Assembly (NCBI RefSeq): GCF_003334385.1
Contig: NZ_QOWN01000024.1
Origin: Escherichia coli
GTDB taxonomy: Bacteria > Pseudomonadota > Gammaproteobacteria > Enterobacterales > Enterobacteriaceae
Strand: one strand, 5' to 3'
DNA: 64,000 bases
Shown here: one piece after another, positions 33,642 to 34,682 of the stretch
Numbering within the stretch: the first letter of the stretch is position 1
Layout of the letters: every line of letters starts with the position of its first letter
Position numbers and translations under genes: made by a program
Notes under the pieces: model-generated
Told to the model about the DNA's origin: nothing
Database searches by the model: none
The model's input: only the letters and a program-made list of their open reading frames with translations

Positions 33642-33732
33642 GTCACTTTTTGTCATTTATGACACGCTTTGATTGTCTGTTTTTGATCGTATTTGTAATT
33701 TATAGTCAAAAAATTGACAGCCGTCACTTTTT
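33642..33732. promoter_or_regulatory. yihU/yihV divergent promoter region with repeated GTCACTTTTT operator-like motifs (candidate CsqR sites)
   Basis: gtcactttttgtcatttatgacac (33642-33668) and gtcacttttt (33723-33732) in a 161 bp divergent intergenic region. Confidence 0.5.
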
Positions 33733-33785
33733 AAACAATTGGTGAAATTAAAATGAACGCATCCCAAAATGTTTAAGGAATGACC

Positions 33786-34682
33786 ATGATTCGTGTTGCT
33801 TGTGTAGGTATAACCGTGATGGATCGCATCTATTACGTGGAAGGGTTACCGACGGAGAGCGGTAAATACGTGGCGAGAAATTATACGGAAGTTGGTGGCG
33901 GGCCAGCGGCGACGGCAGCGGTTGCGGCGGCAAGGCTGGGGGCGCAGGTTGATTTTATTGGTCGCGTAGGTGATGACGACACGGGCAACAGCCTGCTGGC
34001 AGAGCTGGAATCCTGGGGCGTTAACACCCGTTACACCAAACGGTATAACCAGGCGAAATCATCGCAATCCGCCATCATGGTGGATGCCACAGGCGAGCGG
34101 ATAATCATTAACTACCCCAGCCCGGACCTGCTGCCTGACGCAGAGTGGTTGGAGGAAATTGATTTCTCTCAGTGGGATGTTGTGCTGGCAGATGTACGCT
34201 GGCACGACGGCGCTAAAAAAGCCTTCACTCTGGCCCGGCAGGCGGGCGTGATGACCGTTCTGGACGGTGATATTACGCCGCAGGATATCAGCGAGCTGGT
34301 GGCATTAAGCGATCATGCGGCCTTTTCAGAACCGGGTCTGGCGCGCTTAACGGGCGTGAAAGAGATGGCCAGTGCGCTAAAACAGGCACAAACGCTCACA
34401 AATGGTCATGTCTATGTGACCCAGGGCAGCGCAGGCTGTGACTGGCTGGAAAATGGCGGGCGTCAACATCAACCGGCCTTCAAAGTTGATGTGGTAGATA
34501 CCACAGGTGCGGGTGATGTTTTTCACGGCGCATTGGCGGTGGCGCTGGCAACAGGTGGGGATTTAGCGGAGTCAGTCCGCTTCGCCAGCGGTGTAGCGGC
34601 GTTGAAATGCACGCGTCCCGGTGGACGAGCCGGGATCCCTGACTGTGATCAAACCCGATCTTTTTTGTCACTTTTTGTATAA
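33786..34682 (+). CDS. yihV: 6-deoxy-6-sulfofructose kinase YihV (PfkB family)
   Basis: 298 aa; PfkB signature DTTGAGDVFHGA. Confidence 0.9.
   Translation: MIRVACVGITVMDRIYYVEGLPTESGKYVARNYTEVGGGPAATAAVAAARLGAQVDFIGRVGDDDTGNSLLAELESWGVNTRYTKRYNQAKSSQSAIMVDATGERIIINYPSPDLLPDAEWLEEIDFSQWDVVLADVRWHDGAKKAFTLARQAGVMTVLDGDITPQDISELVALSDHAAFSEPGLARLTGVKEMASALKQAQTLTNGHVYVTQGSAGCDWLENGGRQHQPAFKVDVVDTTGAGDVFHGALAVALATGGDLAESVRFASGVAALKCTRPGGRAGIPDCDQTRSFLSLFV
34667..34679 (+). promoter_or_regulatory. third copy of the GTCACTTTTTGT motif immediately upstream of csqR
   Basis: tgtcactttttgt overlaps the yihV stop and precedes the yihW start. Confidence 0.45.

Follow-up and report, generated by a model that had tools for sequence, protein, structure and literature searches.

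Three identical copies of the 10-mer GTCACTTTTT are situated around yihV and csqR in a 64,000-nucleotide stretch of Escherichia coli DNA (hereafter, the window), which raises the question of whether this motif is what the regulator CsqR (YihW) recognizes at its target promoters. The initial annotation regarded the three sites as candidate operators of CsqR, a DeoR-type repressor, that would govern both the divergent catabolic operons and the csqR gene itself. The protein does belong to this family: its best NCBIfam matches are DeoR/GlpR-family models covering residues 10-256, its RefSeq name is csqR, and its homologues carry PF08220 and PF00455, i.e., an N-terminal DeoR-type helix-turn-helix (HTH) and a C-terminal DeoR sugar-binding domain.

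In E. coli, as relayed in PMC8006165, PMC12608037, and PMC8249747, which cite Shimada 2019, CsqR binds within the yihU/yihV spacer as well as in the region of its own promoter, and the units under its repression are yihUTS, yihV, and csqR; its binding is cooperative, and sulfoquinovose (SQ), SQ-glycerol, and sulforhamnose release it from DNA. To the extent described in these sources and in PMC8464067, the published system has the identical locus, regulator, and logic. The control of the divergent units and the autoregulation are borne out by this published binding and repression and are already known at the fragment level; because the yih genes were already recognized as targets of CsqR, the regulatory logic of the initial annotation is not new. 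The literature searched, which cites Shimada 2019, gives fragments and one ChIP-exo interval, with no CsqR box found at the nucleotide level; Shimada 2019 itself may define the operator differently.

The refinement offered here is modest and consists of a candidate CsqR box with its copies, candidate -10 hexamers for yihU and yihV, and a shared CRP-like dyad (Table 1). The answer toward which the evidence leans, by somewhat more than an even chance, is that a CsqR box of approximately (T)GTC-NN-TTTTT(G) would occur at least six times in the sulfoquinovose (sulfo-EMP) control DNA, with the three exact 10-mers as its closest matches, and we infer that CsqR contacts the box itself.

Table 1. Positions of genes, candidate CsqR boxes, dyads, and promoter elements in the window.
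Feature	Position	Strand	Remarks
yihU	reading frame ends at 33618	minus	gene context as in the initial annotation
Box A, TGTCACTTTTTG	33641-33652	plus	holds site 1 (33642-33651); yihU leader, about +28 to +40 from the start at ~33680
Box B, TGTCATTTATGA	33651-33662	plus	direct repeat of box A, 10-bp period
Palindrome TGTCA-TTTA-TGACA	33651-33664		the "longer dyad" of the initial annotation at site 1
Block C, three phased 10-bp units TGTCTGTTTT, TGATCGTATT, TGTAATTTAT	33674-33703	plus
Box C, degenerate copy TGTCTGTTTTTG	33674-33685	plus	first unit of block C, on the yihU start site
Candidate yihU -10 hexamer, TACGAT	33686-33691	minus	TAnnnT in all 59 aligned loci
Palindrome GTCAAAAAATTGAC	33705-33718		right arm shared with the main dyad
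Main dyad, AAAAATTGAC-agcc-GTCACTTTTT	33709-33732		centre 33720.5; right arm is site 2; candidate dual CsqR/CRP site
Box D-, left arm GTCAATTTTT	33709-33718; box 33708-33719	minus	fourth copy, one mismatch
Box E	33722 onward	plus	inverted pair with D- over the yihV -35 region
Candidate yihV -10 hexamer, TAAAAT	33749-33754	plus	TAAAAT in 55/59 loci, plus TACAAT and TAAGAT
yihV	ATG 33786, stop codon ends 34682	plus
TGAC-tgtg-ATCA element	34640-34651		upstream of csqR; TGA-N6-TCA geometry as in the main dyad
Box S3, TGTCACTTTTTG	34666-34677	plus	holds site 3 (34667-34676); yihV codons -5 to -1, abuts the csqR -10
csqR -10 region, TATAAAAT	34678-34685	plus	kept in nearly all loci
csqR (yihW)	34716-35501, ATG 34716	plus	RefSeq annotation

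Recurrence and conservation of the motif

By exact matching, the 10-mer is found on the plus strand at 33642-33651, 33723-33732, and 34667-34676 (sites 1, 2, and 3, respectively) and nowhere else in the window, which confirms the repeat as it had been described; all of the copies are located within 1.04 kb, either between yihU and yihV or immediately upstream of csqR. A 10-mer of this kind might recur in AT-rich intergenic DNA by chance, as the motif is short and T-rich and its single-mismatch variants number 13 in the window against 4.8 expected. However, the three exact copies compare with a chance expectation of 0.18 (100 dinucleotide-preserving shuffles, none of which gave more than one copy), and they are clustered on a single strand at promoters. 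An independent repeat search of the window recovered the same three-copy family, and a 13-nt exact repeat, TGTCACTTTTTGT, was found at 33641 and 34666, common to boxes A and S3. Across the 599 kb of 57 orthologous loci, 82 occurrences of the 10-mer fall in the two regulatory regions and 10 in the remaining ~585 kb, an enrichment of ~350-fold in counts that are not independent because the loci share their ancestry; nine of the ten off-region copies share one homologous position, ~3.3 kb downstream of the csqR start. The motif is far above background in these loci and, with the positions kept in 57-61 loci of many genera, chance recurrence is effectively refuted.

In an unbiased k-mer count over 25 representative loci, TGTCA/TGACA was the most over-represented 5-mer (100 observed, 10.3 expected) and, of the 5-mers listed, the only one that 25/25 loci have both in the spacer and upstream of csqR. 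A TGTCA-centred box is the best shared and conserved element of the two published CsqR-bound fragments; the EMSA probes, defined by primers of PMC5816610 that were re-used in PMC12608037, map to 33519-33853 and 34469-34774 and enclose all three exact copies and, in addition, every box copy. The conserved unit reads approximately TGTC-NN-TTTTT(G); degenerate copies add at least three to the exact ones, at 33651, 33674, and 33708 (minus strand), and the consensus of the box in 61 loci is GTCACTTTTTAA for box E, GTCAATTTTT for D-, and TGTCACTTTtTG for S3.

The motif is conserved along with the recognition helix of the protein. TGTCA is present in both regions in 25/25 loci, the dyad in 61/61, and S3 in 59/61, and all of the orthologues examined, including those with an overall identity as low as 68%, have an almost unchanged HTH segment, VSTQTVRRDIRKLS..GLITRHHGG. 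Even where CsqR is only 68-74% identical (Dongshaea, Leminorella, and the short-cassette types), the box architecture persists and the recognition helix is nearly unchanged.

The density of GTCA/TGAC is by itself not diagnostic, a coding stretch at 19290 being denser than the spacer. Separately, a match to the six-copy matrix at 30543 in the yihR-yihS spacer (TGTCGTTTTTTT) was rejected as a CsqR box: most genera either lack this spacer or have an unrelated sequence there, and the match is situated in a hairpin with a T-run.

Core promoters and the placement of the boxes

A sigma-70 consensus scan of 33560-34780 yielded no promoter in the yihU/yihV spacer and no recognizable -35 hexamer at either the yihU or the yihV promoter; the promoter positions used here are therefore based on published start sites together with the conserved TAnnnT hexamers. 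The yihU hexamer appears as TACGAT, TATGAT, TAAGAT, TATGCT, TACACT, TATCAT, or TACGCT in 59 loci, and the start predicted from it, at about 33679-33680, fits the published start site at -62/-63. The published yihV start at -25/-27 from the ATG corresponds to 33759-33761 in the window, and that of csqR at -27/-28 corresponds to 34688/34689. On this map, box C falls on the yihU start, the yihU leader carries boxes A and B, the -35 region of yihV is overlain by box E, and S3 is at about -24 to -13 of csqR; in other words, the box is common to every regulated promoter and overlaps the start site, the -35 region, or the spacer of the three published promoters.

The 80-bp block 33674-33755 is nearly invariant in Enterobacterales, and because this holds for the entire block, operator and promoter are inseparable by conservation alone. 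The repeats could accordingly be read as promoter-architecture elements serving RNA polymerase (phased T/A tracts that produce intrinsic curvature, or UP-like or spacer elements) with no transcription-factor specificity. In keeping with this, T/A tracts at 33647, 33680, 33708, and 33728 are spaced by about three, three, and two helical turns, overlap of the boxes with core promoter regions is consistent, and conservation of the block extends beyond the boxes. Nevertheless, such a reading is improbable: the conserved core is TGTCA/GTCAC and not the T-run, site 1 retaining TGTCA while its T-run varies; one copy is covered by the in vivo CsqR footprint; and a box whose position relative to the -10 differs at the three promoters (start site, -35 region, and spacer) is for that reason unsuited as a polymerase element.

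The yihU leader and the in vivo footprint of CsqR

Site 1 had been described as part of a longer dyad. The palindrome itself is real and is shared by the window, K-12, and E. whittamii, with a near-copy in C. amalonaticus (TGTCATTTATGACC); its columns 33660-33664 are conserved at 0-40% in other genera, and on these alignments the longer dyad is specific to the Escherichia lineage. Neither the dyad nor the T-run of site 1 is conserved, only the TGTCA-N5-TGTCA direct repeat that boxes A and B form, which is found as TGTCN-N5-TGTCN in 52/61 distinct loci. Within box A, compared over 55 other loci, TGT is conserved at 95% or above, C at ~90%, and A at ~80%, and the next base and the T-run at 30-80%.

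Block C is nearly invariant in 55 other loci, and the E. coli short cassette, which is 65% identical, retains it. The single strong YihW site in published ChIP-exo data, 4071641-4071681 of NC_000913.2 (S/N 168; PMC8464067), maps to 33665-33705 in the window, between sites 1 and 2, and includes the degenerate copy GTCTGTTTTT at 33674, which is absent from the initial annotation. Relative to the published system, it is the TGTC-NN-TTTTT(G) copies and their arrangement that are proposed here, with a degenerate copy lying in the in vivo interval. None of the three exact GTCACTTTTT copies falls within this footprint; no ChIP-exo peak is reported at the csqR promoter (PMC8464067), and boxes A and S3 are the best matches and yet have no peak. 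The minor YihW peaks (yafO, ssuE, ansP, yhcC, and glpA) are uninformative because no box lies within any peak examined. The assignment of the three sites as CsqR operators stands in part: the exact copies lie within the EMSA probes and the box is shared and conserved, but the in vivo footprint misses all three and site 2 also resembles a CRP site.

The dyad shared by the yihU and yihV promoters

Site 2 forms the right arm of a dyad whose arms are conserved as GAC-N4-RTCA in 61/61 loci, whereas its centre at 33720-33722 is variable. The palindrome GTCAAAAAATTGAC is at least 90% conserved in aligned loci, with a weaker left arm in distant loci (GTAA or GTTCA). By a crude, hand-weighted CRP consensus score, the main dyad ranks within the top 7 of the ~64,000 22-mers of the window, and against the CRP consensus AAATGTGA-N6-TCACATTT its core matches at 7/10 positions (ATTGA...TCACT) or, by hand count, at 13/16 informative positions; in three distant loci the core is near-perfect. 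In 59/59 loci, the yihU and yihV TAnnnT hexamers begin 29.5 and 28.5 bp, respectively, from the dyad centre, which places this centre at the class II distances of -41.5 (yihU) and -40.5 (yihV), within 1-2 nt of the published start sites. A CRP site in yihU/V has been claimed, and CRP binds the yihU/V and csqR fragments in vitro at the level of whole fragments (PMC5816610); the same study describes CRP as a repressor of yihV by qRT-PCR.

These observations allow site 2 to be read as the yihV-proximal half of a CRP site, AAAATTGACAGCCGTCACTTTT, instead of a CsqR operator, with a CRP dimer centred at 33720.5 serving both promoters and CsqR acting through block C and perhaps A, B, and S3. The identity of site 2 to sites 1 and 3 would then arise because the right half-site of CRP with its T-rich flank (TCAC-A/T-TTT) resembles the CsqR box. 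The CRP-score rank, the fixed spacing, the in vitro binding, and the want of a recognizable -35 hexamer at both promoters all accord with this explanation, as do the short-cassette-type loci, which read AAAGTGACACGCATCACT with a near-perfect GTGA-N6-TCAC core; moreover, the two flanks of box E depart from those of A, C, and S3 (C/G for T1, A for G12), and the ChIP-exo footprint ends at 33705, before the dyad. Several features nonetheless make it rather doubtful. The left half is TTGA and not GTGA in 56/61 loci, so that CRP position 5, normally G, is T; the C at 33718, which would be CRP position 9, never varies, although CRP does not require it; and the E. coli short cassette has CACGA in the left half (2/5 CRP matches) while keeping TGTC and the T-run. 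Because GTC and the T-run of the left arm are invariant and the two bases between them vary (AA, GT, AT, or AC), TGTC-NN-TTTTT fits this arm better than the TGTGA of CRP. In addition, the published qRT-PCR has CRP repressing yihV instead of activating it, and repression of yihV would be left unexplained if CsqR sat only ~56-96 bp upstream of the yihV start.

At site 2, a repressor box probably overlaps an activator site, and we infer that the site is used by both CsqR and CRP. In its geometry (TGA-N6-TCA with A-rich and T-rich flanks) and its position at -41.5/-40.5 from back-to-back promoters that have no -35 hexamer, the dyad is like those of class II CRP promoters in which one central CRP site is shared across a divergent control region; it is unlike them in its TTGA left half in most species, its extra invariant positions, and the description of CRP as a yihV repressor.

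The csqR promoter

Site 3 is located 40-49 nt upstream of the csqR ATG, within the last five yihV codons, and box S3 is found in 59/61 loci with T1, G2, T3, C4, and G12 invariant in its consensus. Third-codon-position identity is 0.84-1.00 over the last 13 yihV codons, codon -8 being the sole exception, versus 0.09-0.93, mostly below 0.7, further upstream in yihV. The last 13 codons are under a non-coding constraint, with their synonymous sites frozen.

The TGAC-tgtg-ATCA element upstream of csqR is likewise conserved beyond coding need, and its crude CRP score is moderate (top 0.3%). A CRP site has been placed at -41.5 of the csqR promoter (PMC5816610), and the element is probably this site. 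The exact published position at -41.5 was not reproduced; the two possible frames, centred at 34645.5 and 34652.5, are both moderate by hand count; the scripted score refers to the first frame only.

Proposed mechanism and relation to known systems

In the mechanism proposed for the CsqR box, the yihU leader would carry boxes A and B as direct repeats with a 10-bp phase, box C would sit on the yihU start and be followed by two phased TG-N4-T-rich units containing the yihU -10, D- and E would form an inverted pair over the yihV -35 region, and in the csqR promoter S3 would separate the -35 region from the -10 region. When sulfoquinovose is absent, CsqR oligomers would cooperatively cover this array and occlude three core promoters, including that of csqR, and the binding of SQ, SQ-glycerol, or sulforhamnose would release CsqR. 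The D-/E dyad, which in geometry and position also corresponds to a class II CRP site, would be common to both divergent promoters.

A further step is put forward only tentatively, namely that the invariant dyad has a dual use, in which one CRP dimer in the class II position would activate both divergent promoters and each of its half-sites would double as CsqR boxes. CsqR would nucleate on A, B, C, C', and C'', spread over the dyad, displace CRP, and shut off yihUTS and yihV together, and the solitary box at csqR would give a weaker autoregulation.

DeoR/GlpR-family repressors of E. coli, such as DeoR, GlpR, AgaR, and UlaR, use several short degenerate sites distributed across divergent control regions; they bind cooperatively as oligomers and are released by an effector, CRP sites adjoin or overlap their operators, and autoregulation is common. 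In sequence, the candidate CsqR box is distinct both from the palindrome of DeoR, TGTTAGAA.TTCTAACA, and from the consensus sites of GlpR and AgaR. Set against such arrays, CsqR would appear to read one half-site in both direct (10-bp period) and inverted arrangements.

The resulting map supplies targets for mutagenesis and for the engineering of sulfoquinovose-responsive promoters. Nissle 1917 and similar strains have a short yih cassette that binds YihW weakly and does not respond to sulfoquinovose. This cassette has a rearrangement of boxes A and B together with a degenerate box E, and these box changes may help to explain both the weak binding and the missing response.

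Recurrence and conservation of the TGTC motif

The yih cluster of Escherichia coli (sulfoquinovose, sulfo-EMP) is located in the window, and sequence matching recovered positions 33300-35000 at an identity of at least 90% in 4027 complete E. coli genomes, the annotation of which supplies the genes in the table. The initial annotation had noted that GTCACTTTTT recurs around yihV and csqR; exact copies are indeed found at 33642 (site 1), 33723 (site 2) and 34667 (site 3), all on the plus strand and with no others in the 64 kb. This recurrence is far from chance, as 0.18 copies are expected in shuffled sequence and no shuffle contained more than one, and a separate repeat search recovered the same three-copy family, together with a 13-nt exact repeat, TGTCACTTTTTGT, common to sites 1 and 3. 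Allowing one mismatch adds a minus-strand copy, GTCAATTTTT, at 33709-33718, and the more degenerate copies entered as boxes B and C were found by eye and by matrix scan; the motif would be best described as TGTC-NN-TTTTT(G), a form present in six copies or more.

Conservation was assessed in 67 loci from one scan of species-representative genomes, in four more distant loci obtained by protein look-ups, including Dongshaea (CsqR 68% identical), and in the "short cassette" versions from E. coli, with a DNA identity of 65%. The order yihU/yihV/csqR is the same in about 60 of the 67 loci, in which CsqR is 74-99% identical; moreover, a common DNA specificity is to be expected because the helix-turn-helix segment of CsqR is nearly invariant in all orthologues compared. 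In an unbiased k-mer count over 25 representatives, TGTCA/TGACA ranked top (100 observed against 10.3 expected) and was the only listed 5-mer present in both regulatory regions of all 25. Across 57 loci (599 kb, related by shared ancestry), 44 exact copies of the 10-mer fall at site 2, 34 at site 3 and four at site 1; ten more lie elsewhere, nine of these at a single homologous position some 3.3 kb downstream from where csqR starts.

The three sites are conserved in different forms. At site 1, the longer dyad TGTCA-TTTA-TGACA of the initial annotation is present at 33651-33664. Only TGTCA-N5-TGTCA is retained across loci (52 of 61); the T-run of the site and the right arm of the longer dyad are not conserved, and this dyad is lineage-specific. 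Site 2 forms the right arm of a dyad at 33709-33732, found in 61/61 loci, in which GTCAATTTTT (minus-strand reading) and GTCACTTTTTAA flank a variable centre of 3-4 bp. Site 3, with the consensus TGTCACTTTtTG in 59/61 loci, falls within the last yihV codons. The 13 terminal codons, codon -8 excepted, have third-position identities of 0.84-1.00, compared with 0.09-0.93, mostly below 0.7, for the preceding 47; these frozen third positions indicate a non-coding constraint. The spacer at 33674-33755 is almost invariant across genera while synonymous sites of the flanking genes have diverged, and since the whole block is conserved, conservation alone cannot separate an operator from a promoter.

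Promoter architecture and the dyad at site 2

Genes, proposed CsqR boxes and candidate promoter elements
Feature	Position	Strand	Sequence	Remark
yihU	32722-33618	minus		sulfolactaldehyde reductase
yihV	ATG 33786, stop ends 34682			sulfofructose kinase
csqR	34716-35501			DeoR/GlpR-family regulator
Box A	33641		TGTCACTTTTTG	yihU leader; A and B jointly span about +19 to +40
Box B	33651		TGTCATTTATGA	yihU leader, 10 bp after A
Box C	33674		TGTCTGTTTTTG	on yihU start site
Box D-	33708-33719	minus	TGTCAATTTTTT	left arm of dyad
Box E	33722		CGTCACTTTTTA	right arm of dyad, over yihV -35 region
Box S3	34666		TGTCACTTTTTG	abuts csqR -10 (TATAAAAT), about -24 to -13
Candidate yihU -10	33691-33686	minus	TACGAT	
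Candidate yihV -10	33749-33754		TAAAAT	

Both candidate -10 hexamers keep a TAnnnT pattern with middle bases that vary among loci, and that of yihU lies inside two further 10-bp TG-N4-T-rich units that follow box C. Start sites predicted from these hexamers agree to within 1-2 nt with the published ones, which fall on the window at 33759-33761 for yihV, about 34688/34689 for csqR and, among those of yihU, about 33680/33681 (given as -62/-63). From their positions, the core elements of every promoter are overlapped by a box, an arrangement that fits repression by occlusion and also the reported cooperative "polymeric" binding.

The dyad centre, at 33720.5, lies 29.5 bp (yihU) and 28.5 bp (yihV) from the first bases of the hexamers in 59/59 aligned loci, which places it at -41.5 and -40.5, respectively, if the hexamers are set at -12 to -7. 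A promoter scan found no recognisable -35 hexamer in either promoter; by hand count, the dyad AAAATTGACAGCCGTCACTTTT matches 13 of 16 informative CRP consensus positions, and by a crude, hand-weighted CRP scoring it is among the seven highest of the roughly 64,000 22-mers in the window. Loci of the short-cassette type have AAAGTGACACGCATCACT here, with a CRP core that is close to perfect, and both yih fragments are bound by CRP in vitro (PMC5816610). From its position, the missing -35 hexamers, the consensus match and this binding, site 2 looks as if it lies within a class II CRP site common to both divergent promoters. That it is a CRP site only is nevertheless rather unlikely: the left half reads TTGA rather than GTGA in 56/61 loci, C at the additional position 33718 never varies, the E. 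coli short cassette (left half CACGA) has lost the likeness to CRP while retaining TGTC and the T-run, and published qRT-PCR describes CRP as repressing yihV (PMC5816610). Site 2 is probably shared with, or part of, a candidate CRP site. The two best CRP consensus matches in the window lie at 46092-46113 (AAATGTGACAAATATCACAGGT), close to the fdhD start, and 53592-53613 (GAACGTGATGATGTTCACAATT).

Relation to published CsqR binding

Shimada et al. (2019) reportedly found that CsqR binds at two places, one in the spacer and the other upstream of yihW, and represses all three transcription units. This study is the primary source cited by later papers (PMC8006165; PMC12608037; PMC8249747), according to which CsqR (YihW) occupies both the yihU/V spacer and DNA upstream of csqR itself in large, cooperative complexes, dissociated by sulfoquinovose and SQ-glycerol and more weakly by sulforhamnose (PMC8006165; PMC12608037), and the yih spacer is essentially the one target in genomic SELEX (PMC8249747). 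In the later papers searched, no nucleotide-level CsqR box was found. The published EMSA primers (PMC5816610) map to 33519-33853 and 34469-34774; hence, all three exact copies are inside CsqR-bound fragments.

In ChIP-exo on glucose, YihW showed a single dominant site, 4071641-4071681 (S/N 168), the seven others having S/N 4-14 (PMC8464067). The reads were mapped to NC_000913.2, and the yihV ATG is at 4073739 in NC_000913.3. Given the differences between the versions, this ATG would be at 4071762 in the older one, a position consistent with the published start at 4071737, stated to lie at -25. The footprint accordingly spans -121 to -81 from the ATG, or window 33665-33705 (CGCTTTGATTGTCTGTTTTTGATCGTATTTGTAATTTATAG), between sites 1 and 2; of the copies it includes the degenerate one at 33674, whereas all three exact ones fall outside it. 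No ChIP-exo peak is seen at boxes A or S3, and the minor peaks inspected (at yafO, ssuE, ansP, yhcC and glpA) have no box inside. The strongest in vivo contact is thus with a degenerate copy, which weakens the box model; overall, the composite CsqR box model is judged slightly more likely than not. The interpretation in the initial annotation is partly supported: its regulatory logic, in which CsqR governs the divergent operons and also its own gene, is right and was already known, and what is new here is a modest nucleotide-level refinement.

One minor YihW peak (S/N 8.2; K-12 NC_000913.3 about 997547-997577) lies immediately 5' of ssuE, which serves in aliphatic sulfonate utilisation, and is without a CsqR-type box.

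Variation among yih loci

Among the 5353 E. coli genomes matched, 1327 have a short yih cassette (60-80% identity). In this cassette (L002, L005), the TGTCA repeats near yihU are found on the other strand and ATCACTAATT takes the place of site 2, changes that may bear on the report that in Nissle 1917 YihW binds weakly and SQ elicits no response. A TauE/SafE-family sulfite-exporter gene lies between yihQ and yihR in the present strain (28656-29531, minus strand) and another in the Dongshaea cluster; none is listed in the K-12 cluster as published (ompL, yihO-W). A box-like match in the yihR-yihS spacer was rejected as a non-conserved hairpin with a T-run (GACATA...TATGTC, then nine T on the plus strand, opposite to gene direction; 30517-30552); a comparable hairpin, AACGGCATA...TATGCCGT, occurs in this spacer in some genera, whereas most lack the spacer altogether. 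A 13-nt direct repeat, GGGTGATG(T/G)TTTT, occurs inside yihV (34511-34523) and in the csqR leader (34690-34702).

In Dongshaea marina (L075, 4068-4963), gene calling splits the yihV homologue into two PfkB fragments, 173 and 99 residues long, which suggests a frameshift or pseudogene; the regulatory layout is kept. In locus L078 (4292-5003), the csqR homologue adjoins yihU and the kinase gene is missing from between them. Block C (box C and the two units after it) and the dyad are retained at the yihU side of the 700-bp spacer, which also has two stretches that resemble the yihV end with TGTCAC after it, as though a kinase gene had degenerated there. Finally, an 885-base contig labelled Bacillus coahuilensis m4-4 (L061, NZ_ABFU01000106.1) encodes CsqR residues 52-261 at 100% identity to E. 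coli, which looks like contamination of the assembly by E. coli DNA.
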